From Patescibacteria group bacterium (GTDB taxonomy: Bacteria > Patescibacteriota > Patescibacteriia > JAXHNJ01): DNA of 64,000 nucleotides. Of the stretch, positions 1,127 to 40,199 are shown in pieces (the first letter of the stretch is position 1; each line of letters starts with the position of its first letter). A program made the position numbers and the translations under genes. Location of the stretch: assembly GCA_041649715.1 (NCBI GenBank), contig JBAZMP010000001.1, forward strand, positions 309,287 to 373,286. Direction: 5' to 3'. The notes below the pieces were generated by a model. The model was not told the DNA's origin, did not search any database, and worked only from the letters and a program-made list of their open reading frames with translations.

Positions 1127-1213
1127 GGCATAAAATAACACAAATTTTGGTGGAAAATAGATTATAATACGGAGGTAAATTAAAAGAATTTTTGGGCAAT
1201 TAAATAAAAATAT

Positions 1214-3586: not shown

Positions 3587-4989
3587 ATAAATTTACAGTT
3601 GATTTTCAAAATATTGGTGAACAACAATTTTTAAGACCCAATTTTGGTTACAGGTATTTTTTTGATATTCAGAATGCGGAAATTTATCCTACAAAAGATA
3701 GTATTAAATTAAAATATGTCTTGAATGAGATGCCGATGAAGAAAGTAAGCAAGGGTGAATTAGAAGAGTCAGAAATTCTGATTGATATAGGAAATATTGA
3801 AAGAAGATTTAATAATTTAATAAATTTAGTAGAAGTAGATAGAATAGGTTCTGATAAAAATATAATGCAATATGGAGACATCATTATACCTAAATTGCAA
3901 CCACAAATGGGGAATATTTTTTTAAATTCTGGTCATAAAAGATTTATAGGATCTACCGAATTGCTTGAATATAAAATTAATGAAAATTATAATCCCATAT
4001 TCATTTATTACTTAATTACTTCTAATAAATTTCTTTTTGATCTAGCAAAATTGGAAAGTGGAAAAGCGCATAGAAGGGTAAATTCAGTAGATCTGTTAAA
4101 AATTAGAATTCCCTTAATATCTAAAGAATCGCAAGATTTAATTGTTGCTCAAATATGGCCGATTGAAAAGAAAATTAATGAACTAAAAAAACAAATTGAA
4201 CAACCTCAAAATGTTATTAATAAAGTTTTTGCAAGAGAATTTGGTTTTGATTTAGAAAAATATGAAAAGTTAAAGAAAGATAAGTTTTCCGAAGTAGATT
4301 TAAAAGATATTTTGAGACATAATTTTGTTAGAATAAGTTTTCATTTTCATCATAAAACTCTTATTGCCATTGAAAATAAATTAAAAAATAAGAATTATTG
4401 GGCGCCGGTTAATTCATTATTTAGTTTATTCGGTGGAAAAAGAATACCAAAGGGTAAGAGTTTTTCGAATATCGAAACGGACTATTATTATTTAAGACCT
4501 ACGGAAGTAAGTATTTGGGGTATTGATAAGATTAACGTTCCATTTATCCCTGTATCAATTTATGATCAGTTAAAGAGATATAAAATAGTAACGGATGAAT
4601 TTTGTATTTCAATTGTCGGTACTTTAGGGAAAACCGCGTTAATTAACACAGATATTTTAGATATAGGAAAAGATAATTTAATATTAAGTGAAAACTTTAT
4701 TAAACTAAAACCTAAAAAACATATAAATAGTTTATTTTATATTTACTTTTTTTATAGTTTTATTTTTGAAGCGCAAATTAATAGAGAATATACCATAACA
4801 TCAATAAAAAAATTAGGTATTGATAAATGGAATAATATAAAAATTCCATGTATTTCTATTATAAAACAGCAAAAAATTGTTGATGAAATCAAGGGTGAAT
4901 TAGACAAACAAGAAAAATTTTATAAGAAAATTGAAATGGAAAGAGATAAAATTGATGAGATTATTGAAAAAGTGATTATTCGTGAATAG
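3577..4989 (+). CDS. hsdS: Restriction-modification specificity subunit (HsdS / BcgI-B-like, two target-recognition domains)
   Basis: 470 aa. Two variable domains are separated by the conserved central coiled-coil spacer (LISKESQDLIVAQIWPIEKKINELKKQIEQ). The C-terminus has a matching repeat (IKQQKIVDEIKGELDKQEKFYKKIE). It is translationally coupled to the methyltransferase gene. Confidence 0.8.
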   Translation: MGLNKFTVDFQNIGEQQFLRPNFGYRYFFDIQNAEIYPTKDSIKLKYVLNEMPMKKVSKGELEESEILIDIGNIERRFNNLINLVEVDRIGSDKNIMQYGDIIIPKLQPQMGNIFLNSGHKRFIGSTELLEYKINENYNPIFIYYLITSNKFLFDLAKLESGKAHRRVNSVDLLKIRIPLISKESQDLIVAQIWPIEKKINELKKQIEQPQNVINKVFAREFGFDLEKYEKLKKDKFSEVDLKDILRHNFVRISFHFHHKTLIAIENKLKNKNYWAPVNSLFSLFGGKRIPKGKSFSNIETDYYYLRPTEVSIWGIDKINVPFIPVSIYDQLKRYKIVTDEFCISIVGTLGKTALINTDILDIGKDNLILSENFIKLKPKKHINSLFYIYFFYSFIFEAQINREYTITSIKKLGIDKWNNIKIPCISIIKQQKIVDEIKGELDKQEKFYKKIEMERDKIDEIIEKVIIRE

Positions 4990-5064
4990 ACTCATATTTA
5001 AGTCATTTTTACAATATCCATTGACCTAATTTATTTCAATTAATAATTATTAATTAAGAATATT

Positions 5065-5985
5065 ATGGCAAATCTCTATTGGAAAAAGAATAAAAAAATA
5101 TTAGCCGCTACCGAGACACCATTTAAAACAGAAGATGAACTTGAACGTTATCTATTAGATACCCGGGGGATTTTAAGCGAAATCAATATAATAAATAGGC
5201 AAATTAGGTCCAAAACGGTTTCAGGAATAGAAATTCCAGATATGATCGGAGTTGATAGCGAGGGTTCCATTGTTATTATTGAAAATAAAAATGTTCCGGT
5301 TGATGAAAGGATTATTTCTCAGGTACTTAATTATGCTCTTTGGGCAGAATCTAATCCAGATTCAATAAAGAATTTATGGCTTCAAGCTGATCAAGAAGGC
5401 GTGGAACCAGAATGGGACAATTTACAAATTCGCATAATGATAGTTGCCCCAGAAATAAAACCACATTTAGCAAAATTCATTTCAAAAATTGGATACCCAA
5501 TTGATTTATTAGAGATAAAAAAATTTAATATTAGTAAAGATGAATTTATTGTGTTAAATAAAATAGAACCAAATATAATTGATACAAAACCAGTACATGC
5601 AAAAAGAAATTATGATTATTCATATTATTCAACCAATCATAATAAGGAAAGTGTAAAAAAACTTGAAAAAGCTGTAAATAGCGTTGAAAATTATGTTAAT
5701 AAAAACAAATGGAAATTAGAAAAAAAATTTAACCAAGGTTATGTGGGCTTTAAATATGGTTTTCCCTTAGTTTTTGGCATACAGTGGTTAGGAACCAGAT
5801 CCTTCGGGTTTTTTTTCAAAATGCCTAAAGCAAAAATGAAAAAAATTATTGTTCCGGGCCTTGAATTTAAGGGTTATAATGATCGGTGGGATCAAGTAGA
5901 ATATAAAATTATTTCACCTACTTTTGACGTTAAAAAATTAAAACCAGTGTTTCTAGCTTCATACAATTATGTCAAAGGAGAATAA
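5065..5985 (+). CDS. PD-(D/E)xK nuclease-like protein of unknown function (restriction-endonuclease-like fold, possible NucS/DUF91-like core)
   Basis: 306 aa. IPDMIGVDSEGSIVIIENKN followed by QVLNYALWAE reads as D...ExK plus a QxxxY motif. The gene is AT-rich and sits inside the defense island. Confidence 0.45.
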   Translation: MANLYWKKNKKILAATETPFKTEDELERYLLDTRGILSEINIINRQIRSKTVSGIEIPDMIGVDSEGSIVIIENKNVPVDERIISQVLNYALWAESNPDSIKNLWLQADQEGVEPEWDNLQIRIMIVAPEIKPHLAKFISKIGYPIDLLEIKKFNISKDEFIVLNKIEPNIIDTKPVHAKRNYDYSYYSTNHNKESVKKLEKAVNSVENYVNKNKWKLEKKFNQGYVGFKYGFPLVFGIQWLGTRSFGFFFKMPKAKMKKIIVPGLEFKGYNDRWDQVEYKIISPTFDVKKLKPVFLASYNYVKGE

Positions 5986-6031
5986 CATTTTTTCTTTAAA
6001 AGTTGCGCTATAATATAATAAGATATGCAGC

Positions 6032-6598
6032 ATGAGTAATCTTGAAACATTTTTCGAACAATTCGAAGAATGGGTGCTAAAAGATATTAAAATAGTACTA
6101 GAATTAGTAAATAAAGAAGGTAATTCATTAGCCCCTGATAGAAGAGTGGTGGTTTGGCGGCGCCCGCTTGTCGCCGGAGTTATATTAATATGTTGCGCTA
6201 TCGATACATTAGCCGCATTTCGTTATGGCCGAACTAATAATAATGTGGGAACATATTTTATGCGCTTTGTTAGAGATTATTTTGCGCAAAGCCGTGACAC
6301 TAGATATAATGATGAGCAAATCTATAAGGGGTTACGTAATGCATTATTACACGGCTATTCTCTTGGATCAGATTTAGCATTAAGTCATACTAGCGCTTCA
6401 CGGCATTTGACGAAAGAAGCAAACAAAATAGTTATAGATGTATTTTCACTGCAGCAAGATTTAGAAAAAGTATATTCTATCTATAAAAGTGAATTGAAAA
6501 ATGGACAACATATTCCAGAATTTAATGATAGATGGAATTACGCACCTCTTATTCAATATTTTCCTGATATAGATTTAAAACTTAATAGCAGAAATTAA
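6032..6598 (+). CDS. Hypothetical protein (defense-island associated)
   Basis: 188-aa ORF with no recognisable motif. It follows the nuclease-like gene 46 nt downstream and is followed by a strong terminator. Confidence 0.5.
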   Translation: MSNLETFFEQFEEWVLKDIKIVLELVNKEGNSLAPDRRVVVWRRPLVAGVILICCAIDTLAAFRYGRTNNNVGTYFMRFVRDYFAQSRDTRYNDEQIYKGLRNALLHGYSLGSDLALSHTSASRHLTKEANKIVIDVFSLQQDLEKVYSIYKSELKNGQHIPEFNDRWNYAPLIQYFPDIDLKLNSRN

Positions 6599-6652
6599 AG
6601 TAATTCAAACATAAGCTCATTTTTCCCTCCCCACTGGCGGTTTTTGCCTAAC

Positions 6653-27919: not shown

Positions 27920-27997
27920 GCCGCCTTCGTCTAGCCCGGTCCAGGACGCGTCCCTCTCACGGACGAAACATGGGTTCGAATCCCGTAGGCGGTACCA
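27920..27997 (+). tRNA. tRNA-Glu (anticodon CUC) with encoded CCA
   Basis: GCCGCCTTCGTCTAGCCCGGTCCAGGACGCGTCCCTCTCACGGACGAAACATGGGTTCGAATCCCGTAGGCGGTACCA. The acceptor stem has 7 base pairs and the T-loop is GGTTCGAATCC. The anticodon loop CTCTCAC places CTC at positions 34-36. It closely resembles E. coli tRNA-Glu. Confidence 0.9.
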
Positions 27998-28029: not shown

Positions 28030-28674
28030 ATGATTATGTTCGAAACAACACCAAAATCATCCGACCCGCTTGATATGTTCGAGGTGACACCAAAATCGCC
28101 CGCCCCGCCTAATCTGCCGGCCGAAAAAAATACGGCGGTCGGCTCGCGACTTCCCGAGGAGCTATTGGATGAAGTGATGGAAGGCGGCTCCGGCAAGGGC
28201 AAGAAGATAATCCTGGTTATTTTAGGCGTTATCATCCTGGCGGGGCTGGTTTTTGGCGGTTATATTTTATACAACAAATATTTCGGCGCCCCTTCTGAAA
28301 ATGAAAATATCAGTAATATCAGTAATCAGGCCGGAAACAAGAATATCACGATCCCACCGGCCGATATCCAGGCCCTGGCTCTCTGCTATTTAAAAGAACA
28401 TGCTGACGCCTCTTTCTATTTTCCCGCCGGACTGATAAGGGGAGATTACGAAAAGGCGGCGGCTAACGCGGCCGGCTGCGCAAGTTTCAGCGCCGATGAA
28501 TTGAGCGCCATCTTTTATTATTTTACCCTTGATCCGGATCAGGACGGCCTGAATTACGTCGTGGAGCAAAAATACGGCACGGACAACAGCAAGAAGGACA
28601 CGGACGGGGATTCCTACGGCGATCTTGTCGAGATAAACGGCGGCTATAATCCTTTAGGGCCGGGAAAATTATAA
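28030..28674 (+). CDS. Membrane-anchored protein of unknown function
   Basis: 214 aa. A Pro-rich N-terminus and one TM helix (IILVILGVIILAGLVFGGYILY) are followed by an extracytoplasmic domain ending in DTDGDSYGDLVEINGGYNP. Confidence 0.55.
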   Translation: MIMFETTPKSSDPLDMFEVTPKSPAPPNLPAEKNTAVGSRLPEELLDEVMEGGSGKGKKIILVILGVIILAGLVFGGYILYNKYFGAPSENENISNISNQAGNKNITIPPADIQALALCYLKEHADASFYFPAGLIRGDYEKAAANAAGCASFSADELSAIFYYFTLDPDQDGLNYVVEQKYGTDNSKKDTDGDSYGDLVEINGGYNPLGPGKL

Positions 28675-28739
28675 ATTTATGGGTGCCAGAAACCTTTATT
28701 TTCCGCTTGTTTTAAGGCAAAATTTAATTTATAATATAT

Positions 28740-29339
28740 ATGGCATCAAATAAAGAAGGAGGAAATCCCATGAAAAAATATATAATATTAGGCTTAATCG
28801 TTATCGTGGTGGTAGCCGGATTGCTGGCCTTGTTTTGGTTTTATCCGGGGATTTTCCCTTTTGGGCAGAACAAAAATTCCGCCTCCCAGAATACCAATTT
28901 AACCGCGAACACTAATGCGTCGGTCAATCAAAACACGAACACGCCAGCCGTAAATCTTAACATCAGTCTCAAGACGGGGAGCATTCAGGTAAATAAGGCC
29001 GTCACCTACAGAAACATTGAATTTAAGGTCTTGACCGCTGACAAGTCAAGCGTATTTGAAAAGATGGAGGCAGGCAGCGGCCAGACGCTGGTCGGACTGT
29101 ATCTGGAAAGGATAACCGGAGGCAACATTGTTGACATCTCTTCCTGGCTGAGAACAGAGATCAAGCTTAAAAACAGCCAAGGCCGGGAGTTTTCGCTTTT
29201 CGGCTATAATTTGCCCGGGGGAAGCGCCCCTTCCTATTCCGCCAGTTATCTGGTCTTTGAAACCGGCCAGAAAGATAGCGGCTTTTCCCTGAATTTCGGC
29301 ACGGGCGAGGCCTTTCAGACTATCGATTTAGGTTTTTAA
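28740..29339 (+). CDS. Membrane-anchored protein of unknown function with an Asn-rich linker
   Basis: 199 aa. A TM anchor is followed by NTNLTANTNASVNQNTNTPAVNLN and a beta-rich domain. Confidence 0.55.
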   Translation: MASNKEGGNPMKKYIILGLIVIVVVAGLLALFWFYPGIFPFGQNKNSASQNTNLTANTNASVNQNTNTPAVNLNISLKTGSIQVNKAVTYRNIEFKVLTADKSSVFEKMEAGSGQTLVGLYLERITGGNIVDISSWLRTEIKLKNSQGREFSLFGYNLPGGSAPSYSASYLVFETGQKDSGFSLNFGTGEAFQTIDLGF

Positions 29340-29399
29340 GTTAATCCTTTAAAACTATCCTTTTTTAGATACTTTGGATAGTTTTAAAATTAATTATTT

Positions 29400-30527
29400 A
29401 TGAAAATAGCGATTGTCACGCAAAGTTATTATCCGATCAAGGGAGGGGTGGCGGAGCATGTCCATGCTCTTTCCGGAGAGCTGGAAAAATTAGGGCATAA
29501 AGTCGTCATCATCACCGCCAATTTTACCGGTTTGGACGATAATTATGGACGTTGTGTCTATCGGATCGGCCGCGACTTGACGATTCCGATAAACGGCGCC
29601 TTCAACAACATGACGGTCGGTTTTTCCTTAAAAAAACAGTTGGAGGAAATTGAAAGCAAGGAAAAATTTGATCTTATCCATATCCATCAGCCGATTGACC
29701 CGATCCTGCCTTTAATGGCTTTGAAATATTTAAAAGCCCCCAAAGTCGGCACTTTCCATACCTACAGCGAGGGAAGCTATATTTTGGAGACTTTAAAGAA
29801 TCAGGCCAAGCCTTTTTTTGATCGTCTTTCCGGCTTGATCGCGGTCTCGTCTTCCGCGCGGGAATACATCACCCGGTATCTGCCCGGTGATTACCGGATA
29901 ATCCCCAACGGCGTGGACACCACCCGGTTTTCTCCCGAAGTGGAGCCCTTGGAAGGATATAAAAATAGCCGCGATTTCAAGATATTATTTGTGGGCAGAA
30001 TGGACCCCCGCAAGGGTTTTAAGTATTTGTTGAGGGCTTTCCCTCTGATCTATCAAAAGATCACCAATGTCCGCCTGATCGTGGTGGGCAATGGATTTTT
30101 GCGGACGTTTTACCATTTATCCCTGCCTTCCGTTCTGCGGCCCAGAGTGGATTACCGGGGTTTTGTTTCAAGGGCCGATCTGCCCCGGTATTATGCCTCC
30201 TGTGATGTTTACTGTTCGCCGGCCACCATGGGCGAAAGTTTCGGCATCGTTCTTTTGGAAGCGATGGCCTCGGGCAAGCCGGTCATCGCCTCGGATATCC
30301 GGGGTTATAATTCCATTCTGGAAGACGGCCGCCAGGGATATTTAGTGCCCAAAGAAAATCCCCTGGCTTTGGCGGAAAAAATCATTGATTTGGCCTGTGA
30401 CCAGAAAAAAAGAGAAATGATGGGGGCGGCTGGCCGGCAAAAAGCCCTGACCTTTGATTGGGGGAGGGTGGCGAAAGAGATTGAGGGACTATACCGGGAA
30501 GTTCTGGGGAAAAAGGGAAAGTCATAA
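29400..30527 (+). CDS. Family 4 glycosyltransferase (GT4)
   Basis: 375 aa. The N-terminus MKIAIVTQSYYPIKGGVAEHV..L.KLGH.V is typical, as is the C-terminal E(x7)E motif region ESFGIVLLEAMASGKPVIASD. Confidence 0.8.
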   Translation: MKIAIVTQSYYPIKGGVAEHVHALSGELEKLGHKVVIITANFTGLDDNYGRCVYRIGRDLTIPINGAFNNMTVGFSLKKQLEEIESKEKFDLIHIHQPIDPILPLMALKYLKAPKVGTFHTYSEGSYILETLKNQAKPFFDRLSGLIAVSSSAREYITRYLPGDYRIIPNGVDTTRFSPEVEPLEGYKNSRDFKILFVGRMDPRKGFKYLLRAFPLIYQKITNVRLIVVGNGFLRTFYHLSLPSVLRPRVDYRGFVSRADLPRYYASCDVYCSPATMGESFGIVLLEAMASGKPVIASDIRGYNSILEDGRQGYLVPKENPLALAEKIIDLACDQKKREMMGAAGRQKALTFDWGRVAKEIEGLYREVLGKKGKS

Positions 30528-30531
30528 AATT

Positions 30532-32424
30532 ATGGAGGAAGGGGTAAAAAATATAAAGAGAGCAAAAGGGGCTTTTCGTTTTTTTATCTTGGCCGGCCTA
30601 GTGATTGTTTTGCCGCTTTTTGTTTTTATTTTTATCAATCAGCCGCTAAAACCCACCCTGGTCGTGATCAAGGAGGAAAGCAGGTTGAAAGTTGATTCAC
30701 CGCTGGAGATCCAGTTTGACTGGCCGGTCGCCCGCCAAGTAAATATCACCATTGAACCGGCGGTAACGGGCGAGGTGGCTTATAAGAATATGATCATCGG
30801 CCAGCATTTTTCGCGGACCGTGGTTTTTACCCCGGAGCTTAACTTTTGGCCGGACACCACCTACCAAGTGAGGGTTTCAAATGTGAAATCCGTTTTGCCG
30901 AGCTTGTTGCCGGCCCGGGAATATGTCTATACTTTTACCACGGAAAGTGTGCCGAAAATCAAATCCCTGACCCCGGAAGTTGTTGGGGAAATAAGGGCAG
31001 ACCAAGAATTCAAAATAACCCTGGATAAAAAACCGGCCAACCTGGCAGAATACGAATATCGTTTTTTGCCGGCTGTTGATTATGACACTCTGTTAAGCGA
31101 AGAGGGAAAAACCGTCACTTTAAAGCCTAAAAGCTTGCTTTCCCAGGGCCAGACTTATCAGTTATCTGTTTGGCAGAAAAAAATCCGGAATTTTTATCAG
31201 AAAAATGAGGCGGGTTTCCGGGCCGAGCCGGAAAGTATTTGGACCGGCAATTTTGCCGTCCGGGAGGCTCCCTTTCTTTCGGGCTTTTCCCCGAAAGGAG
31301 AAAATGTCGGCTTAAACGCCGAGATCACCGCGGTTTTTAACGAGCCGGTGGAAACTGCTTCTTTCAAAGAGAGCCTTTCCATCACGCCGGCTTTATCAGG
31401 CGATTGGCGGACCGAAGATCAAAAAACCTTTGTTTTGAAAGAAGCGACACTCGCCAAAGACACCGACTATAAAGTTTTGATCCGCCGGGGCTTAAAGACT
31501 CTCAAGGGCGGATATTTCACCGAAGACGCCACGCATACTTTTAAAACGATCGGCCCGGTGGAAATCGCTCGTTTTTCTCCGGCTGATGGCGCCGCCGGCG
31601 TTTCCGTCAGTCATTCTTTTTCCGTCACTTTTAACCAGGCAGTGGATAAAACATCGGCCCAAAGTCATTTTTCCCTTGAGCCGGCGGCTGCCGGAGATTT
31701 TTTGTGGTCAGGGGAGACATTGACTTTTAAGCCAAAGGCTTCCTTAGCTTTTAATACGACCTATCATCTCACGATATCCAAGGGAGTGAAAAGCTTGTCG
31801 GGTTTTGATTCGGAAGAAGACTATAAAACAAACTTTACCACCGAGCTTTCCCTGACGAAATTGGCCGTTCCCTTCCACCGGCAGGAGCATAATTTAAGCT
31901 GCGAGACCGCCACCCTGGTCATGGCCTTGGCCTACCGAGGGGTGAGCGTTTCGGAGGCCGCGATTATAGATTATATCGGCTTTGACCCCACGCCGAAATC
32001 AGGGGGCGTCTGGGGTAATCCTAACGTCGCTTTTGTCGGCGACATTGACGGCCACCAGCCTTCGACCGGCTACGGAGTCTATTGGGATCCGATCACCAGA
32101 GCCGCCGATCAATACCGGAGCGCTTATGATTTTACCGGCTGGAATATCTCCGATTTGACCGCGGAGATCAAGAAAGGCAATCCGGTGATCGTCTGGGGCA
32201 CGGCCGGTTCCGGAGCCAGGATTGACTGGAAGACGCCCGCCGGCGGCAACGTGGTGGCCGTCAGCGGCGAGCACACCCGGGTGGTTGTCGGTTTTATCGG
32301 TTCGGCCGAAAATCCGAGCAAAATCATTACTTTAGACCCGCTTTCCGGGGAAAAGTATTTTACCTTGAGCAGTTTTCTTTGGAACTGGGGGCTTTTGGGC
32401 CGAAGCGGCGTGGTGGTCGAATAG
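30532..32424 (+). CDS. Membrane-anchored multidomain protein with a C-terminal YvpB/C39-like cysteine peptidase domain
   Basis: 630 aa. An N-terminal TM helix is followed by repeated beta-sandwich-like segments. The C-terminal domain LAVPFHRQEHNLSCETATLVMALAYRGVSVSE ... GEHTRVVVGF matches the Peptidase_C39_2 (YvpB) pattern VP...Q....CE..S..M. Confidence 0.6.
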   Translation: MEEGVKNIKRAKGAFRFFILAGLVIVLPLFVFIFINQPLKPTLVVIKEESRLKVDSPLEIQFDWPVARQVNITIEPAVTGEVAYKNMIIGQHFSRTVVFTPELNFWPDTTYQVRVSNVKSVLPSLLPAREYVYTFTTESVPKIKSLTPEVVGEIRADQEFKITLDKKPANLAEYEYRFLPAVDYDTLLSEEGKTVTLKPKSLLSQGQTYQLSVWQKKIRNFYQKNEAGFRAEPESIWTGNFAVREAPFLSGFSPKGENVGLNAEITAVFNEPVETASFKESLSITPALSGDWRTEDQKTFVLKEATLAKDTDYKVLIRRGLKTLKGGYFTEDATHTFKTIGPVEIARFSPADGAAGVSVSHSFSVTFNQAVDKTSAQSHFSLEPAAAGDFLWSGETLTFKPKASLAFNTTYHLTISKGVKSLSGFDSEEDYKTNFTTELSLTKLAVPFHRQEHNLSCETATLVMALAYRGVSVSEAAIIDYIGFDPTPKSGGVWGNPNVAFVGDIDGHQPSTGYGVYWDPITRAADQYRSAYDFTGWNISDLTAEIKKGNPVIVWGTAGSGARIDWKTPAGGNVVAVSGEHTRVVVGFIGSAENPSKIITLDPLSGEKYFTLSSFLWNWGLLGRSGVVVE

Positions 32425-32446
32425 GAGATTTTGTTCTATAATAAGA

Positions 32447-33421
32447 GTGATTAAATATAAACTGATGTCCCATTGTGTTCTCATTTTCGAAAAAGAAACC
32501 ATCCGGGAAGCAGGCTTGGAGGATATCCACAAGGATGATCTGATCTGGGCGGATTTTCAAGATCCGACGGAAAAGGATTTAAAATTTGTTGCCGAACTGA
32601 TCGGGACCGGCATCCCGGAGATAAAAGAATGGTTTAAGCCCTCGCAAAGGCCGACTCTGTTCCAGCAGGATGATTACTCGGCCATTTTTTTAGGTTTCCC
32701 CGTGGCTAGCAATAAATCTATCCACGCTCATCCTTTGTTAATATTTGTTTCTAAAGACCGGAACGATATCATAACCCTGCATCGCGGCCCGTGCCTGGCT
32801 CTTGAAAAAGTCCATTCCTACAATGAATTGCGTAATTTGCGGGTTTTTAAGGGCGGTATTACTAACGTGCTTTTAGCCATCCTGGAAGAAGTGGTGGACA
32901 GTTTTTTTGATAACGTGGAAAAGATCAGCGACGATTTGGAAAATATTGAAGGCCATATGTTTGACTATAAAAACAGCCGGAACGTGATGAACCTAACTTT
33001 TACAGTAAAAAAAAGCCTGATCTATCTGAACCGGGCCCTGATCGCTGACCGCGAGGTCGTCATGGGGATAGAAAGGCAGTATGTAAAATTTTTCGACGAG
33101 GAACGACTAGGGGATTTCCGCGATCTATCCCTGAAGATCGTCCAGCTGATCGAAATGATGACCACCTACCGGGATATCATCACTTCGACCATTGAGATTC
33201 ATCTCTCGGCCATTTCCAATAACCTGAACGTGACCATGAAGAAAGTCACCTCCTGGGGCGCTCTAATCTTGGTGCCCAGTCTGATCGCCGGTATTTTTGG
33301 CATGAATTTCGAATACATCCCCATTTTGCATGAAAGAACTGGTTTCTATATATCCATAATATTAATGGTGTCATCGGTATATGTTCTGGCGCGGTATTTT
33401 CAAAAGAAAGACTGGCTGTAA
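32447..33421 (+). CDS. corA: Magnesium/cobalt transporter CorA
   Basis: 324 aa. The C-terminus has two TM helices with the GMN signature (IFGMNFEYIP) and the typical cytoplasmic domain. Confidence 0.8.
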   Translation: MIKYKLMSHCVLIFEKETIREAGLEDIHKDDLIWADFQDPTEKDLKFVAELIGTGIPEIKEWFKPSQRPTLFQQDDYSAIFLGFPVASNKSIHAHPLLIFVSKDRNDIITLHRGPCLALEKVHSYNELRNLRVFKGGITNVLLAILEEVVDSFFDNVEKISDDLENIEGHMFDYKNSRNVMNLTFTVKKSLIYLNRALIADREVVMGIERQYVKFFDEERLGDFRDLSLKIVQLIEMMTTYRDIITSTIEIHLSAISNNLNVTMKKVTSWGALILVPSLIAGIFGMNFEYIPILHERTGFYISIILMVSSVYVLARYFQKKDWL

Positions 33422-33426
33422 AAAAA

Positions 33427-34230
33427 ATGAAGAAGAAAATAATAATATTGTTATTAATCCTAACACTCGCCTGTCTTTTTTATTTCGGCCGGCACCAGAT
33501 CGCGGAATTATGGGAGAATTTCGTGGCCGAACCCCTGCCAGAACCGACTCCTCTGGAAAATATCAATACAAGGATAAATCAAAATACTAACGCAGCGGTC
33601 AATCAGAATCAAAATATTAACTTGTCGGTGAATAATAACCTTAACGCCGCGCCGCCCGTTTTACCGTCTGAATTCAATCTAGTCGTGCCTTTTACCACTC
33701 AGTCGCCGTTTGCGGAATGGACCGAGCAGGATAACGAATCCTGCGAAGAAGCGGCGATTTTGACCGTCCATTATTACTGGCAAAAAAAGACTTTTACCAA
33801 ACAAATTGCCAAAGAGGAGCTGCAAAAGATTGTGGATTATGAAATGGCGCATCTGGGTTTTTACAAAGATACGGATGCGGAAGAAACGGCCCAGTTGGCC
33901 AAGGATATGTGGGGCTACAAGCGCGTGGACGTGGTTTGGGATCCGACGCTTGAGGATATAAAACAGCAGGTCTATGCCGGCCGACCGGTGATCTTGCCGA
34001 CCGCGGGAAGAGAGTTAAAAAACCCGAATTTCAAAACGCCGGGGCCCATATACCACATGGTGGTGGTGCGCGGCTGGACCAAGGGTATGATCATTACCAA
34101 TGATCCGGGCACGCGCAAAGGTGAAAATTACCAATATTCCCCTGATATTTTAATGAATGCGGTGCATGACTGGAACGACGGGGATATAATGAATGGAAAA
34201 AAGGCGATGATTGTGATTTATCCGAATTAA
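33427..34230 (+). CDS. Signal-anchored YvpB/C39-like peptidase-domain protein
   Basis: 267 aa. A TM anchor and Asn-rich linker are followed by LVVPFTTQSPFAEWTEQDNESCEEAAILTVHYYWQ ... YHMVVVRGW, which matches the Cys and His regions. Confidence 0.55.
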   Translation: MKKKIIILLLILTLACLFYFGRHQIAELWENFVAEPLPEPTPLENINTRINQNTNAAVNQNQNINLSVNNNLNAAPPVLPSEFNLVVPFTTQSPFAEWTEQDNESCEEAAILTVHYYWQKKTFTKQIAKEELQKIVDYEMAHLGFYKDTDAEETAQLAKDMWGYKRVDVVWDPTLEDIKQQVYAGRPVILPTAGRELKNPNFKTPGPIYHMVVVRGWTKGMIITNDPGTRKGENYQYSPDILMNAVHDWNDGDIMNGKKAMIVIYPN

Positions 34231-34248
34231 TCTTTAATATCCTCAATT

Positions 34249-34701
34249 ATGCCGGAGAAAGAAAGAGATTTCTTAGTCCGTAAGCCGATTAGAGTGAGTA
34301 TCATTATGAATGTTGATGTAAGTGATTGGGCCCTTAAAGACAAGCTGCCCGAAGGCTATATATGCGGTGGTGGCGTATTTAGTTTTCCCGCCGGGTATCG
34401 GGAATCCTACATTGTCAATGGAAAAGAATATAATTGTGAGGGTAATTTGAGCTTAGAGGAGCAAAGGGCTGATATTACACATGACCTGACGGAAGGAGGC
34501 TTTTCTCTTCAGGAAGCGGAAGAGTATATGGTCAATCTTAAGACCGTAGAATGGTCAGTCAGCTATTTGAATTACGATGCTTCGCAAAAGTGGCTGGAAC
34601 TACATCCGGAATTTGAAGATGAAGCCATGAAAATCTTAAAAGAAGCTATCAATGAGCTTAAAGCGGAAGGAAATGAACAAGGGAGACGGGTCAGAAGGTG
34701 A
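34249..34701 (+). CDS. Hypothetical acidic protein
   Basis: 150-aa ORF with no motif recognised. It is flanked by an imperfect direct repeat of about 26 bp. Confidence 0.45.
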   Translation: MPEKERDFLVRKPIRVSIIMNVDVSDWALKDKLPEGYICGGGVFSFPAGYRESYIVNGKEYNCEGNLSLEEQRADITHDLTEGGFSLQEAEEYMVNLKTVEWSVSYLNYDASQKWLELHPEFEDEAMKILKEAINELKAEGNEQGRRVRR

Positions 34702-34724: not shown

Positions 34725-34862
34725 TGAAATAAATTCCAATATCCAAATTCAAAACACGCCCCAGAGGCGTTTTTTTGTATTAAAAAAATGGATCGTTAGA
34801 GTTTTGGATTTCGAATTTGGAATTTGGGTATTGTTTGGAACTTGGAATTTGTGATTTGGTAT
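34725..34862. repeat. AAATYC-family palindromic hairpin with a nested canonical terminator (ACGCCCCAGAGGCGTTTTTTT)
   Basis: ATTCCAATATCCAAATTCAAAAC ... GTTTTGGATTTCGAATTTGGAATTTGG. The inner GC hairpin plus T-tract lies at 34752..34776. Confidence 0.6.
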
Positions 34863-35002
34863 TTAGCGGCTAAATAGCGGCACAGTCAAGAATAGGGGAT
34901 AACCTTCCCTTTAAAATTTGACTCTCAAAAAGGGCGATGATATAATGTGGATAAGTATGTAATTGCATACTTTTCATACTTAATAAAATCAAGCAAAAAA
35001 CC

Positions 35003-35356
35003 ATGAAAAAAATCGCTTTAATCGCCACAATGGCTATCGCTTGCGTCTTGCCTCTTGCCGTTTTGGCCCAAACGCCGCTTTCTATTGAGAATGTCGGCAG
35101 TACCCTGGGTCTTGGCACGGCTGATCTCAAGGCCAGCGTTTTAAACATCCTCCAGTGGGTCCTGGGTCTGCTTGGCTTAATCGCGGTGATTATGATCATT
35201 ATCGGCGGCATAACACTGCTGGTGCCGACGAGCGCCGAAGCGGGAGAGAAAGCGAAAAAGATAATTACGGGGGCGGTCATCGGTTTGGTCGTTATCTTGC
35301 TCGCCTGGGCCATTATTATCTTTGTCATCAACACGACCACTAACGTGACGGTTTAA
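35003..35356 (+). CDS. Small secreted 2-TM protein: a candidate TrbC/VirB2-like pilin, or a hydrophobic bacteriocin-like peptide
   Basis: 117 aa. Signal peptide MKKIALIATMAIACVLPLAVLAQT, then two long hydrophobic helices separated by the basic loop PTSAEAGEKAKKIITG. The overlapping minus-strand ORF was rejected. Confidence 0.45.
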   Translation: MKKIALIATMAIACVLPLAVLAQTPLSIENVGSTLGLGTADLKASVLNILQWVLGLLGLIAVIMIIIGGITLLVPTSAEAGEKAKKIITGAVIGLVVILLAWAIIIFVINTTTNVTV

Positions 35357-35372
35357 AAATTAATATAAATAT

Positions 35373-35627
35373 ATGGTATCGACTAAGCAGCCGGAAATCT
35401 TCGGCACCGTGACCGTCGGAGAGCGCGGCCAGATCGTCATCCCCGCCCATCTGCGCGAGAAACTGCGCCTGAAAAAAGGCGACCAGCTGATGGTTTTCTG
35501 CCATTTAAACCAGATAATCGGTCTGGTCCGCTCAAATGAGATGTACGAATTTTTGAACCGGATCACCAACCGGATGGTCAAACAGGTGGATAAATTTAAA
35601 GAAGCCATTAAAAAACAGGGATTATAA
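35373..35627 (+). CDS. AbrB/MazE/SpoVT-family DNA-binding protein
   Basis: 84 aa. VTVGERGQIVIPAHLREKLRLKKGDQLMV is the swapped-hairpin AbrB-type motif. Confidence 0.7.
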   Translation: MVSTKQPEIFGTVTVGERGQIVIPAHLREKLRLKKGDQLMVFCHLNQIIGLVRSNEMYEFLNRITNRMVKQVDKFKEAIKKQGL

Positions 35628-35630
35628 CGA

Positions 35631-36440
35631 ATGGAAAATATCATCGAAGTCAAGAATCTAACCAAAAAATTCAAGGATCTGACCGCCGTGGATAGCATCT
35701 CTTTTAACGTCAAAAAGGGGGAGGTCTTCGGTTTTTTAGGGCCGAATGGGGCCGGTAAATCCACGACCATCCGGATGCTGACCACCTTGATGCGGCCGAC
35801 TTCCGGCCAGGCGACCGTGGCCGGACACGACGTTTCCAGCCAGCCGGATCTGGTGCGCGAGCACATCGGTTTAGTGGCGGAAAAAATCATCCTCTATGAT
35901 CGGCTGACGGCAATGGAAAATCTGATGTTTTTCGGTAACCTTTATCATTTACCAAAAAATGTCATTAAAGAAAGAGCGGCTAAGTGGCTGAAAGCCCTGG
36001 ATATGGATAAATGGGAAAAAAAGCAGACCGGTACTTTTTCCACGGGCATGAAGCAAAGAGTGAATATCGTCCGGGCCCTTTTGACCGAGCCGGAAGTGAT
36101 GTTTCTGGATGAGCCGACTTTGGGCCTGGATCCGCAGACGTCCCGCTCCATCCGGGATTTTATTAAAGATTTGCATGCCCACGGGGTGACGGTTATTTTG
36201 ACCACCCATATTATGCCCGAAGCGGACGAACTTTCCGATACCATTGCGATTATTGACCGCGGCCGGATTATCGCCTTAGACACTCCTTCTGACCTAAAAG
36301 CTCGCTGTAATAAGCCGAATGCTACCCTGGAAGACGTTTTTCTTTCTTTGACCGGCCGGGTCATGCGCGAGGAAACCCATAATAATATACCTTCGGCCCG
36401 AGGCCGCCATTTCATGGGTGGCCGGTCCCGGATCAGATAA
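35631..36440 (+). CDS. ABC transporter ATP-binding protein
   Basis: 269 aa. Walker A GPNGAGKST, signature FSTGMKQR, Walker B VMFLDEPTLGLD and a His-loop TTH. Confidence 0.85.
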   Translation: MENIIEVKNLTKKFKDLTAVDSISFNVKKGEVFGFLGPNGAGKSTTIRMLTTLMRPTSGQATVAGHDVSSQPDLVREHIGLVAEKIILYDRLTAMENLMFFGNLYHLPKNVIKERAAKWLKALDMDKWEKKQTGTFSTGMKQRVNIVRALLTEPEVMFLDEPTLGLDPQTSRSIRDFIKDLHAHGVTVILTTHIMPEADELSDTIAIIDRGRIIALDTPSDLKARCNKPNATLEDVFLSLTGRVMREETHNNIPSARGRHFMGGRSRIR

Positions 36441-36458
36441 TTAACTCCTTATATTAAT

Positions 36459-37670
36459 ATGAAAAAGTTCGGACAAATTTTCATTGACAGCTTCCGGATG
36501 GCCCGCAAAGACCTGCTGGATTTTTCCCGCGACCGGATGCAGCTGGTTTTTTTCATGATCATGCCCGTTTTTATGATGATCATGACGGGTTTTATTTTTC
36601 CCTCGCAAAGCTCTTTGAAGGATATCTCTCTGGGCCTGGCCAATCAGGACAAGGGACAGATGGGGGTAATCCTGACCAAAGTGCTGACCGAGATGAAGAC
36701 TTCAAGCGGCGCCGCGATCTTTAAGATTAAGACATATGCCGATGTGGACGGCCTGAAGCAGGGGATCCGGGCCCAAGCCATAAATGGCGGCGTCTTTATC
36801 GGTTCTGATTTTTCAAGTCTCGTCCAGAACAATCAGCAAGCCACGGTTTCCCTCGTTCCGGATCAATCAAATCCACAAATTTCCCAGATTCTCACCCAGA
36901 TCTTGGAGCGGGTTATTGCCGGTACGGGGAATAGCGTCGCCCAGGCCAAGGTGGGCGAAATGTTAAAACTGACCGCCACCGCCAATCCGAGCCTGTCGCA
37001 GGTTGACCCGGAAGCCATCATTAGTCCGATCCAAACCACTTTGGATAATTTGATTCCCGGCGAGACGAATTATTTTCAGTTTATCGCCCCGGGGATAATG
37101 GCCTTGATCGTGATGATGTCGGTGATGGCGGGCTTAGCCGCTTCCGTGTCCCGGGAACGGGAATCTGGCACTCTGGACGGTTTGCTCATCGCGCCGGTTT
37201 CGCGGCTTTCCATAATCTTGGGCAAATCACTTTCTCAAACCGTCCGCGGCATGGTCCAGGGTCTGGTGGTTCTGTTTTTGGCCATTCTTATCTTTGGCGT
37301 GCACGTCTACGGCAACTGGCTGATCATGATTTTACTGATGTTCCTTGGGGTGTTTGCTTTCATGGGTGTTGGCATCCTTGTTTCCGCGATGGCCACCGCC
37401 CAGGAAACGGCCATGACCATCATGATGACCCTGCAGTTTCCCATGATGTTCTTATCCGGCACTTTTTTCCCGATTCAGCAGATGCCTCACTTCATGCAAT
37501 ATATTTCGAAAGTGATACCGCTAACTTATGAATCTACGGCCCTGCGCAAGGTCATTGTCCTAAGCGCGGGATTTAGCGCCGTCTGGACCGAGATAGTAAT
37601 ACTTTTTGTTTTCGGGGCGGTGATGCTGGCGATTGCCGTGCCGATGTTTCGGAGGATGGTGACAAGGTAA
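36459..37670 (+). CDS. ABC-2 type transporter permease
   Basis: 403 aa. An N-terminal TM helix and large extracytoplasmic loop are followed by 5 C-terminal TM helices, the typical ABC-2 architecture. It lies downstream of the ATPase. Confidence 0.75.
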   Translation: MKKFGQIFIDSFRMARKDLLDFSRDRMQLVFFMIMPVFMMIMTGFIFPSQSSLKDISLGLANQDKGQMGVILTKVLTEMKTSSGAAIFKIKTYADVDGLKQGIRAQAINGGVFIGSDFSSLVQNNQQATVSLVPDQSNPQISQILTQILERVIAGTGNSVAQAKVGEMLKLTATANPSLSQVDPEAIISPIQTTLDNLIPGETNYFQFIAPGIMALIVMMSVMAGLAASVSRERESGTLDGLLIAPVSRLSIILGKSLSQTVRGMVQGLVVLFLAILIFGVHVYGNWLIMILLMFLGVFAFMGVGILVSAMATAQETAMTIMMTLQFPMMFLSGTFFPIQQMPHFMQYISKVIPLTYESTALRKVIVLSAGFSAVWTEIVILFVFGAVMLAIAVPMFRRMVTR

Positions 37671-37928: not shown

Positions 37929-40199
37929 ATGGATAATGAATCAATTAAGCCCAAGCCTCCGGTTAAAAAGGCCAATTTTACCATTTGGATCGTTTTGGGA
38001 GCGATCATAGTCATTGTTTTAGCTTTTGGCGGTTATTATCTGTACAGCCAAAGAGCCGGCAACAAAAATACCAATACAGTCAGCCAAACGAATATCAATG
38101 CCAATATCAACGAGAGCGAGAATCTGAATAATAATCTGAACTTGAATGTCAATCAGGCGGTTAACGGCAATACCAATACCTCGGTGGCCAAAACCGGCTG
38201 GCAGCTTATTACCTATCAGCGGGCGGACCACGGTTTCACTTTCCAGCTACCGGAAAATTGGACGACCTGGGGCGGCTGGAACGGCTTTCGCGAAACAGAC
38301 CCTTTGGCTGGCGCTCATTTGGCGGATAATGACAAATATCTGGACTTGACTCTCAATTATTTTGTAAATACCGAGCCGTCTTTTGAAACCTGGCTGGCGA
38401 AACGCAAAGAAGCCATAAGCAAGGACGAAACGATTATCAATGAACAGATAAAAACGATTAACGGCTCTGAGGCGGCCGTAATAGACACCCAATACGATTA
38501 TGTCATTAGCGGAGGCGGAATATATTTAAAAGTCTACGCTTTCGTACCGCGCGGCGATAAGATTTATAAACTTGAAGCAAGTGGGAAAAAGGATTTTTTT
38601 GAAAGCCAAAGCCAAGGTGTTGACGGAATAATTGAGTCTTTTAAATTTATCGACGTAAAACCAATCGCAGAGATCAATACAATTTCTTACGGGCAGAAGA
38701 TATCCTCAAACCTTGCCTATAACCTTGAAGTTGATTGGCTGGCCGAACCCTTGAGTATCAATATGAAAGAACCTTCCCTGTTAAAATCCGATAGCGGCGT
38801 TATGAACCGGGATTACTATCAAGTCGGAACGATCACTAACGGCCGCTATAAAGACAAGAAGCTGCTCGATATTTTTGAAACACCGGATGGGCCGGCTTTT
38901 TATCCTGACTTGTATCGGGTGGTATACGACGAGGAGAGTCGGACATTCACGTATCTGGAAAAACTTTCGGCCACCCTTTCCGATTACGTCAAGGAGAATT
39001 TTGCTTACGACACGGGTTCCACAATCAGCTCTTTGTCTGGAATGCCCGCCGAAATTTCCATTCCTGATTCACAGATAAAACTGGCGGCCGAAGCTTATTC
39101 TTTAAACGGACGCTTTTCCTCCTATGAAAATTTAGAGCTATTATTTACGGATACGACAGCGGGAAAAGTATATTTTGACTCGGTGAAAAAATGTTTTCTG
39201 ATCGAGACACCAGACAGTTTGGTCAAGCTCTATTATCTTAAACTGGACTTTGTCAGCAATTTCACGCCGCCGGAATATTCTTCATCCACGATTTCTCTCA
39301 TCCCAGCGGTTACTTGGACGGATGGCAGCAAAGTGACGAAAGAATACACGTACAGTGAGCCCACCGGCTGTGGGTCAAGCTATTGTCAGTCATTGTTTAC
39401 CGCCGAAGAACTCGGCGGGGCTGACGTGCTCCAAGTCGCCGGCAAGACATCGGCCGGAGATAACGTCTATGAATATAAGGATAAAAACGCCCAATTGCTG
39501 CAGGATACCTACAAAGAATACGGAGTGCCATATCAGGGCGAAAAGGTCGGTTACGAGCAATTTATAAGCGGTCACCCGGTTTTTTACTGGCCGGACCCGT
39601 TTGGCCGATATTTGCGGTTTAAGAAGTCTGAATTTTTGCCCATGGTTGAGTGTGCAAAACCCGTGATCTATCTTTATCCGGAAAAAACGGAAAAAATAAG
39701 GGTGGAAGTGGCGCCGAACGGCGGTTTCTCTGAAACGATCCCGACCTATCCAGATGACGGTTGGCTGGTAACGGCTTCTCCGGCCGGCGAGCTATTAGCC
39801 GAAGATGGCGGAATATACCCATATCTTTTCTGGGAAGGTTTTGGCTTCAACTACAAAATTCCGGACAGAGGTTTTATCGTGGCTAAAAAAGATGTCGGTG
39901 TTTTCCTCTCGGAAAAATTAATAGCCTTGGGCTTGAATGAAAAAGAGGTCGGCGAGTTCAAGGATTTCTGGCTGCCCAAGATGTCAGAAAAACCCTATTA
40001 TTTTATCACTTTCGTCGATCAGAATGTCTTTAACGAACTTGCGCCCTTGAAAGTGACGCCGCAACCCGACCGGATCATCCGGGTTTTTATGGATTATAAA
40101 CCATTGGACGCCCCGATAAGCGTGGAGCCTCTGGAGATTTCGACGCCGGAAAGATCCGGTTTCACCGTGGTGGAGTGGGGCGGTGCCCTGCACCGATAA
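37929..40199 (+). CDS. Large membrane-anchored extracytoplasmic protein of unknown function
   Basis: 756 aa. A TM anchor ending in GGYYLY is followed by an NTNTVSQTNINANINESENLNNNLNLNVN linker and no recognisable catalytic motif. Confidence 0.6.
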   Translation: MDNESIKPKPPVKKANFTIWIVLGAIIVIVLAFGGYYLYSQRAGNKNTNTVSQTNINANINESENLNNNLNLNVNQAVNGNTNTSVAKTGWQLITYQRADHGFTFQLPENWTTWGGWNGFRETDPLAGAHLADNDKYLDLTLNYFVNTEPSFETWLAKRKEAISKDETIINEQIKTINGSEAAVIDTQYDYVISGGGIYLKVYAFVPRGDKIYKLEASGKKDFFESQSQGVDGIIESFKFIDVKPIAEINTISYGQKISSNLAYNLEVDWLAEPLSINMKEPSLLKSDSGVMNRDYYQVGTITNGRYKDKKLLDIFETPDGPAFYPDLYRVVYDEESRTFTYLEKLSATLSDYVKENFAYDTGSTISSLSGMPAEISIPDSQIKLAAEAYSLNGRFSSYENLELLFTDTTAGKVYFDSVKKCFLIETPDSLVKLYYLKLDFVSNFTPPEYSSSTISLIPAVTWTDGSKVTKEYTYSEPTGCGSSYCQSLFTAEELGGADVLQVAGKTSAGDNVYEYKDKNAQLLQDTYKEYGVPYQGEKVGYEQFISGHPVFYWPDPFGRYLRFKKSEFLPMVECAKPVIYLYPEKTEKIRVEVAPNGGFSETIPTYPDDGWLVTASPAGELLAEDGGIYPYLFWEGFGFNYKIPDRGFIVAKKDVGVFLSEKLIALGLNEKEVGEFKDFWLPKMSEKPYYFITFVDQNVFNELAPLKVTPQPDRIIRVFMDYKPLDAPISVEPLEISTPERSGFTVVEWGGALHR

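Follow-up and report, generated by a model that had tools for sequence, protein, structure and literature searches.

The window analyzed here is a stretch of 64,000 nucleotides (nt) from a Patescibacteria group bacterium (GenBank assembly GCA_041649715.1, contig JBAZMP010000001.1, positions 309,287 to 373,286 of the forward strand), and the subject is a run of seven genes at window positions 28030-34701, all on the + strand, which are labelled in order A, B, GT4, D, CorA, F and G. The run lies directly 3' of a tRNA-Glu gene (27920-27997) and a TPI-FBA-GAPDH block. A first-pass annotation, made from the letters alone, had described it as a cell-envelope locus in which a GT4 glycosyltransferase is flanked by anchored proteins, two cysteine peptidases of the YvpB/C39-like type and CorA; all of its domain calls (GT4, Big_5, Peptidase_C39_2 twice and CorA) were reproduced by Pfam. 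The genes of most interest are those for the two peptidases, D and F, whose features are as follows.

30532..32424, + strand: protein D, 630 amino acids (aa), an anchor, four Big_5 domains and a YvpB-type Peptidase_C39_2 domain
30580-30636, + strand: transmembrane (TM) anchor of D, residues 17-35
30649-31842, + strand: four Big_5 immunoglobulin (Ig)-like domains of D, residues ~40-437 (Pfam 6.9e-36)
31852-32421, + strand: Peptidase_C39_2 domain of D, residues 441-630 (Pfam 1.5e-19)
31882-31884, 31900-31902, 32272-32274 and 32335-32337, + strand: catalytic residues of D, respectively Q451, C457, H581 and D602
33427..34230, + strand: protein F, 267 aa, a divergent Peptidase_C39_2 protein
33439-33495, + strand: TM anchor of F, residues 5-23
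33556-33651, + strand: Asn-rich low-complexity linker of F, residues ~44-75
33664-34227, + strand: Peptidase_C39_2 catalytic domain of F, residues ~80-267
33700-33702, 33742-33744, 34054-34056 and 34099-34104, + strand: catalytic residues of F, respectively Q92, C106, H210 and N225/D226

Both proteins exceed the gathering threshold of 24 bits for Peptidase_C39_2 (PF13529), D with 71.5 bits and F with 37.5 bits (4.3e-9). The motifs on which the first reading had been based (VPF..Q, a Cys-Glu pair at the start of a helix and a His region) are real and correspond to Q451/C457/H581/D602 in D and Q92/C106/H210/D226 in F, and the repeated beta-sandwich modules that it had seen in one of the proteins are the four Big_5 stretches of D. 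The peptidase domain of D matches PDB entry 3ERV, a "putative C39-like peptidase" from Bacillus anthracis, at 8e-16, and its AlphaFold (AF2) model, with a predicted local distance difference test score (pLDDT) of 89.4, can be placed on 3ERV by Foldseek with a TM score of 0.83 at 28% identity. No sequence-level relatives of F were found in the PDB, including by a family-profile search; its AlphaFold model has a pLDDT of 92.4. In the models of both proteins the Cys stands at the N terminus of a helix and the His starts a beta-strand, which is the arrangement of papain.

The catalytic Cys and His, whose loss would make these domains pseudo-peptidases, were found to be conserved in both families. 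In the F family, Q92, C106, H210 and D226 are present in 121 of 121 sequences. In the D family, Q451 and C457 are present in 39 of 39 sequences, H581 in 37 and D602 in 36, the exceptions being gaps or truncations save for one Ala at H581, and among stand-alone relatives of the D domain the Cys is kept in 110 of 111 and the His in all 111. Profile-profile alignment of the two families by hhalign gave a probability of 95.8% (E 7e-9), with Cys aligned to Cys, His to His and Asp to Asp. The spacing Gln-x5-Cys in D is papain-like. Because the catalytic residues are conserved to this extent, D and F are predicted not to be pseudo-peptidases, and both are very probably active extracytoplasmic cysteine peptidases with a role in the envelope. 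They are two different subfamilies of Peptidase_C39_2 and new members of a known, functionally uncharacterized and already annotated family: the names already given by NCBI are "C39 family peptidase" and "Ig-like domain-containing protein", and no demonstrated substrate for YvpB or 3ERV was found in the literature searched. In this respect the locus mainly confirms existing automatic annotation and reveals no new kind of system.

The placement of the two enzymes outside the membrane, also part of the first reading, is borne out by prediction. In each of proteins A, B, D and F a single hydrophobic segment lies near the N terminus and is preceded by Lys/Arg, from which an N-in/C-out orientation is predicted, with the bulk of each protein outside the membrane. 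The genes are closely packed, with gaps of 4, 22, 5 and 18 bp between GT4, D, CorA, F and G, the ATG of D at 30532 coming 4 nt after the stop codon of GT4. A consensus scan found no promoter-like sites within the region, and a terminator-like site follows G.

34756-34770, + strand: terminator-like GC-rich hairpin and T-run, 3' of G, the probable end of the transcription unit

The small gaps, the lack of internal promoter-like sites and the hairpin after G are consistent with a single transcription unit, with the qualification that the terminator scan was by consensus only and that the total of terminator-like sites is not above shuffled expectation. A strong promoter-like site (34918-34946; 11/12 matches, with TG) precedes the next gene, which encodes a pilin of the type IV secretion system (T4SS) type. 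The peptidase genes stand within a conserved housekeeping block that runs from TPI-FBA-GAPDH to an ABC transporter.

The two peptidases differ in how they are distributed. The D domain is of the common YvpB type, with ~50%-identical proteins of 240-310 aa in Patescibacteria and also in metagenome-assembled genomes (MAGs) labelled Bdellovibrionia, Cyanobacteria, Verrucomicrobiae and Methylomirabilis, and a search with the domain only returned almost solely single-domain proteins. The full architecture of D (anchor, four Big_5 domains and peptidase) was found in only ~40 clusters, in which the source names, where given, are Patescibacteria. One distant match containing LysM (P0160) was noted among the homology search results. 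The F subfamily is found almost solely in genomes labelled Patescibacteria, where a word-indexed search gave 845 matches and at least 549 species-representative genomes have a relative. Among cluster representatives at 50% identity, 2046 match F (1245 with E<=1e-30); nearly all are 240-300 aa long and have the domain at the C terminus. Mean column identity is 50% across divergent lineages. Such a wide spread fits a housekeeping role. Many MAG records with F homologues, from binchicken and SRP co-assemblies, are titled "uncultured Gammaproteobacteria bacterium" (L008, L010, L012, L021, L027, L030 and others, these being handles for loci in the sample described below), and one is titled "Pirellulales"; their gene contexts are typical of Patescibacteria, and the organism names look unreliable.

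To compare gene neighborhoods, 80 species-representative loci that contain an F homologue, taken with flanks of up to 8 kb, were scored with the proteins of the window and by clustering of the neighboring genes. Of the 61 loci with enough upstream sequence, 15 have a D-type gene no more than 6 kb upstream of F. All 15 pairs belong to one clade of Patescibacteria in which F identity is at least roughly 44-48%, and most other F homologues from Patescibacteria have no D-type gene within 8 kb. The interval between D and F may hold nothing, CorA, MurJ or very large unannotated proteins: CorA directly precedes F in 6 loci and is no more than four genes away in 8 of 80, and MurJ on the same strand takes its place in three (L024, L026 and L035; Pfam 6e-78, 8e-88). 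In seven loci (L009, L012, L013, L017, L020, L021 and L022) the D-type and F-type genes are separated by open reading frames (ORFs) of 700-1,526 aa for which Pfam gave no match, and in L009 a 71-aa remnant of a D-type C39 domain is found just upstream of CorA; the interval looks like an insertion hotspot for genes of surface proteins.

The glycosyltransferase is not part of this conservation. Among the 15 loci that keep the D-F pair, GT4 is directly upstream of D in only 2 (L006 and L011), and only 7 of the 80 loci have a close GT4 orthologue (E<=1e-70) in the neighborhood of F, not always in the same place, so that the association of GT4 with F is loose at best. The conserved element is the D-F pair within one clade, and the layout of a GT4 flanked by anchored proteins is lineage-specific; GT4 and CorA are lineage neighbors and not obligatory partners, CorA being a variable insert. 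The synteny census ruled out GT4 as a conserved partner of the peptidases, and a conserved cluster of GT4 with paired peptidases was likewise rejected, since neither gene set nor order is kept across the genomes that have the peptidases. The first-pass annotation is therefore partly supported: its envelope role for paired peptidases is plausible, and its view of the glycosyltransferase and peptidases as one functional unit is not supported, given the two occurrences in 15. In the closest relative (L005 3965-5094, GCA_043812155.1), the gene calls divide the GT4 orthologue into two ORFs (104 and 271 aa), through a frameshift or pseudogenization or else through a fault of assembly; a real split would suggest that the peptidase pair can do without GT4.

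Polytopic membrane proteins of the flippase type were found to adjoin F in several distinct synteny classes across several lineages of Patescibacteria. They include LPG_synthase_TM (16 loci, usually next downstream), MurJ (13), DedA/VTT (4) and Wzx-like Polysacc_synt (3). A gene of this type lies within 4 genes of F in 36 of 75 loci and immediately adjacent in 29. Density by distance from F served as an internal control, with 21.8 such genes per 100 kb within 1 kb of F and 2.2, 2.4, 0.4 and 0 per 100 kb at 1-2, 2-4, 4-6 and 6-8 kb, respectively; the density within 1 kb is about tenfold that farther away.

Comparison with known systems places D and F beside several groups of enzymes without identity to any. 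Relative to YvpB and 3ERV (PF13529), D adds a TM anchor and a stalk of four Big_5 domains, and F is divergent, mainly from Patescibacteria, carrying 8 inserted residues between Gln and Cys as well as further invariant motifs (W98, CEE, YH, TNDPG and HDW). Peptidase C39 proper (PF03412; ComA, PCAT1 and LahT) differs in that D and F have no PF03412 match and no fusion to an ABC protein and are predicted to be extracytoplasmic, not cytoplasmic. PeiW, PeiP and PeiR (MEROPS C71; PDB 8Z4H) have 15-16% sequence identity to D and F; they are lytic enzymes of phages or prophages that carry pseudomurein-binding repeats and target archaeal pseudomurein, whereas D and F are chromosomal, membrane-anchored and bacterial and lack wall-binding repeats. 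In design D resembles the membrane-anchored mycobacterial L,D-transpeptidases LdtMt2 and LdtMt5, which also have an N-terminal anchor, tandem Ig-like spacers and a C-terminal Cys-dependent catalytic domain in the wall layer, and the Ig region of D matches theirs by Foldseek at 5e-8 to 1e-7; however, the catalytic domains are unrelated (YkuD versus papain fold), and the likeness is one of architecture and generic Ig domains. Phage endolysins, such as LysA with its N5 domain, use the same Pfam family (PF13529) as a wall-degrading module (PMC3314691, PMC8223927), but D and F are cellular and membrane-tethered.

These observations can be brought together in a model in which D and F are housekeeping envelope peptidases whose substrates are peptides of peptidoglycan, a statement that taken whole has somewhat less than an even chance of being correct. 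Both enzymes would be co-transcribed with GT4 and CorA and anchored on the outer side of the cytoplasmic membrane, which is the cell's only membrane. The Cys thiolate, activated by His-Asp, would attack an amide bond in the envelope to give an acyl-enzyme that is then hydrolyzed. The peptidase of D, carried on a rigid stalk of four Ig domains, would act some 10-15 nm from the membrane, and that of F, on a short and flexible Asn-rich tether, would act near it. Their substrates would be peptides of the cell's own wall, either the stem peptides and cross-links of peptidoglycan or nascent lipid-linked precursors, and the two enzymes would serve as autolysins or remodelling enzymes in growth and division. 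That the role is a self-directed, housekeeping one is argued for by the membrane anchors, by how strongly the sequences are conserved and by the housekeeping block in which the genes lie.

Peptidoglycan as the substrate, which we put at or a shade below the chance of the whole statement, is favored for three reasons. F adjoins genes of the lipid-II/polysaccharide flippase type in several lineages. The nearest structural neighbor that is functionally characterized, PeiR, cleaves cell-wall cross-links: it is the lytic pseudomurein endoisopeptidase of a methanogen virus (PMC6189367), and its relatives PeiW and PeiP break an isopeptide bond of pseudomurein, Ala-epsilon-Lys (PMC4592898). Finally, modules like PF13529/3ERV serve in endolysins, PF13529 appearing among the endolysin catalytic domains listed for phages that infect Gram-positives (PMC8223927) and the N5 domain of mycobacteriophage LysA matching 3ERV (PMC3314691).

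Several points weigh against this interpretation. There is no flippase-type gene in the window itself, MurJ is encoded on the strand opposite to F in 10 of 13 loci, and the loci come from related genomes, so that the 36 associations may amount to perhaps 5-6 independent synteny classes rather than 36 events. The 8 additional residues between Gln and Cys in F (Q92...C106 versus Q451...C457 in D) may bear on the geometry of the oxyanion hole. The structural neighbors also include leader peptidases, transpeptidases and amide synthases, and the substrate therefore cannot be read from the fold. D, F and their close relatives lack any fused module for peptidoglycan binding (LysM, SH3b or PG_binding), and neither the D domain nor F, A, B or G has a PHROG family. 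Nor did tblastn against 50,697 phage records turn up a true phage homologue of either peptidase. The literature searched holds no demonstrated substrate for any member of the D or F subfamily, nor was a functional study of either found in the literature on YvpB, C39-like proteins and Patescibacteria.

The only matches in the phage search were four contigs titled "Listeria phage LM 4-x" (UNVERIFIED_ORG; OR848349.1 (L086), OR847007.1, OR848350.1 and OR846819.1), which encode acetolactate synthase, a chemotaxis receptor (MCP), a YvpB-like peptidase and GlmS. These were rejected as fragments of bacterial chromosomes. The records are probably not phage DNA and, being bacterial, give no evidence of an endolysin relationship.

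The most probable of the alternatives is that D, F or both mature, trim or shed surface proteins such as S-layer subunits, pilins, adhesins or the nearby proteins with a TM anchor and Asn-rich linker. The papain-like Cwp84, which processes SlpA in Clostridioides, offers an analogy. Many of the closest folds are true proteases (the C39 domains of ComA and PCAT1, streptopain, staphopain and papain), and by Foldseek the Ig stalk of D resembles S-layer proteins with similar Ig arrays. Potential substrates are also encoded close by, in the form of large unannotated surface proteins (1,200-1,500 aa) between D and F in several relatives, surface proteins with FN3 and TSP3 domains immediately upstream of F in 5 loci and the T4SS-type pilin gene 300 bp downstream in the window. 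No candidate substrate gene accompanies F consistently across lineages, however, and it is flippase-type proteins that recur instead; the pilin gene is downstream of F in only 2 of 60 loci. Surface-protein processing is for these reasons regarded as somewhat unlikely. The same pilin count bears on the proposal that D and F are local wall-opening hydrolases for T4SS or pilus assembly, standing in for VirB1. This could account for the PF18895 T4SS_pilin gene just downstream (35003-35356), as also in L001, L005 and L007, for the gene of a T4 coupling protein two genes upstream of F in L028 and L043 and for the absence of VirB1 from most pilin-bearing genomes of Patescibacteria (PMC12102498). Yet the pilin gene has its own promoter-like site beyond the terminator-like hairpin, pilin genes again follow F in just those 2 of 60 loci, and no gene for VirB4, VirB6 or VirB3 is adjacent, which leaves a stand-in for VirB1 a remote prospect.

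Because Patescibacteria are commonly epibionts, D (with its long stalk), F or both could also be weapons that open the cell wall of a host or prey at the contact site, as one form of the episymbiont-host function suggested in the first reading. The ~4-domain stalk of D could reach past the cell's own wall, and the class of catalytic domain is found in endolysins (PMC8223927, PMC3314691). This is judged improbable, given that both proteins are membrane-anchored and not secreted, that they lie within a conserved housekeeping syntenic block with neither toxin-immunity nor secretion-system pairing, that F is strongly conserved (mean column identity as above) and not diversifying and that the closest relatives of the D domain occur in free-living phyla. 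A different chemistry, in which the acyl-enzyme is resolved by an amine as in transpeptidases or sortases, or in which the target is a glycan, was considered very improbable. The same fold has been reported for a glycosidase, an archaeal C39-like protein with a rate of 16.15 uM/h on synthetic p-nitrophenyl substrates (PMC13642728), but that protein has Asn in place of the triad Asp, which D and F keep, and structural matches to enzymes with non-hydrolytic chemistry are no better than those to hydrolases. As for the canonical function suggested by the family name, that of C39 bacteriocin or double-glycine leader peptidases working with the downstream ABC transporter, the fold is common to the peptidase domains of ComA and PCAT1 and the transporter lies 1 kb downstream. 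Against it, neither D nor F has a PF03412 match at E<=0.1; their domains are C-terminal, unfused to an ABC protein and predicted to be outside, whereas the peptidase domains of PCAT are cytoplasmic; the downstream transporter is of the ABC-2 type with a separate ATPase in a separate transcription unit, and no gene for a double-glycine peptide is evident. Canonical bacteriocin processing is thus largely refuted by architecture and topology and is extremely unlikely.

The Patescibacteria account for much of bacterial diversity, and little is understood of the ways in which cells with such very small genomes construct and remodel an envelope. Returning to the reading of D and F as wall peptidases, a more specific and rather speculative form, which we hold to be unlikely as it stands, would have F as an almost Patescibacteria-only wall enzyme at the exit of flippases for lipid-linked precursors (MurJ, LPG_synthase_TM-type, DedA and Wzx). 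There it might use papain-type acyl-enzyme chemistry to trim, cleave or cross-link stem peptides and perhaps take over from conventional endopeptidases, carboxypeptidases or transpeptidases that these reduced genomes have lost, with D as its stalked partner in the outer layer of the wall. Being large, always catalytically intact and linked to flippases, the F subfamily may reasonably be put forward as a candidate wall-remodelling enzyme typical of the lineage and would lend itself to biochemical work.

The remaining genes of the run are as follows.

28030..28674, + strand: protein A, 214 aa, with a single TM segment at residues 60-78
28740..29339, + strand: protein B, 199 aa, with a TM anchor at residues 15-33, an Asn-rich linker and a beta-rich globular domain
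29400..30527, + strand: GT4 (GT-B fold) glycosyltransferase, 375 aa, cytoplasmic (Pfam PF00534, PF13439)
32447..33421, + strand: CorA-type Mg2+/Co2+ channel, 324 aa (PF01544, 4.8e-50)
34249..34701, + strand: protein G, 150 aa, without a TM segment, final gene ahead of the terminator-like hairpin

Proteins A and B have no match above threshold in Pfam or NCBIfam. Among the 80 loci with F, an orthologue of A was found only in the closest relative (L005/L006) and orthologues of B only in L006 and L011, and the membership of A in the transcription unit is uncertain. The C-terminal region of A is acidic and resembles the Ca-binding TSP3 repeats of bacteria (DPDQDG...DTDGD...GYNPLGPGKL), and its weak matches (1e-8 to 1e-11) are to the FN3 and TSP3 proteins just upstream of F in L032, L045, L048 and L056. 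A protein of this kind, ~485 aa long with FN3/purple-acid-phosphatase-N-like domains and a TSP3 repeat, is found immediately upstream of F in L032, L045, L048, L055 and L056 and has the motif GYNPLGPGKL in common with the C terminus of A. Protein B, F and a 756-aa protein encoded at 37929-40199 have a common architecture of TM anchor, Asn-rich linker (10-14 Asn per 30 residues) and globular ectodomain, which looks like a lineage-typical tether for ectodomains.

GT4 contains Glycos_transf_1 (PF00534, 1.9e-41) in its C-terminal part and Glyco_transf_4 (PF13439, 1.9e-26) in its N-terminal part, has no TM segment, and every match to an NCBIfam equivalog model is far under the cut-off. A Pfam match to GT4-conflict (26.9 bits, cut-off 26) was set aside, being dwarfed by the generic GT4 matches. 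In CorA the GMN motif (GMNF) closes the first of two C-terminal TM/hydrophobic segments, and the score for TIGR00383 is 179.6 bits, under the equivalog cut-off of 200.75. A defence system was also rejected, as PADLOC gave only a trivial match of 19.8 bits, that of CorA to a CorA-like model. Protein G has no match in Pfam, NCBIfam, PHROGs or PADLOC and no orthologue in the closest relative (L005/L006) or in any of the 80 related loci; it probably joined the operon in this lineage alone, as an orphan insertion.

Downstream of the run, positions 35003-37670 encode the T4SS-type pilin (PF18895, 35003-35356), an 84-aa SpoVT/AbrB (MazE-like) protein, an ABC ATPase and an ABC-2 permease. The trio of MazE-like and ABC genes is found again downstream in L001, L003, L005, L007, L010 and L020, with the pilin gene before or after it. 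Toward the start of the window, positions 1200-6600 (and also 119-973) form a low-GC island, with a GC content of 0.27-0.29 compared with ~0.46 elsewhere. This island is preceded by a gene for a Bro-N domain protein and encodes a fusion of the N6_Mtase/Eco57I-type restriction-modification methylase (1214-3586) together with three ORFs that have no Pfam match, and the stretch 1200-6600 is probably a horizontally acquired defence or mobile island.

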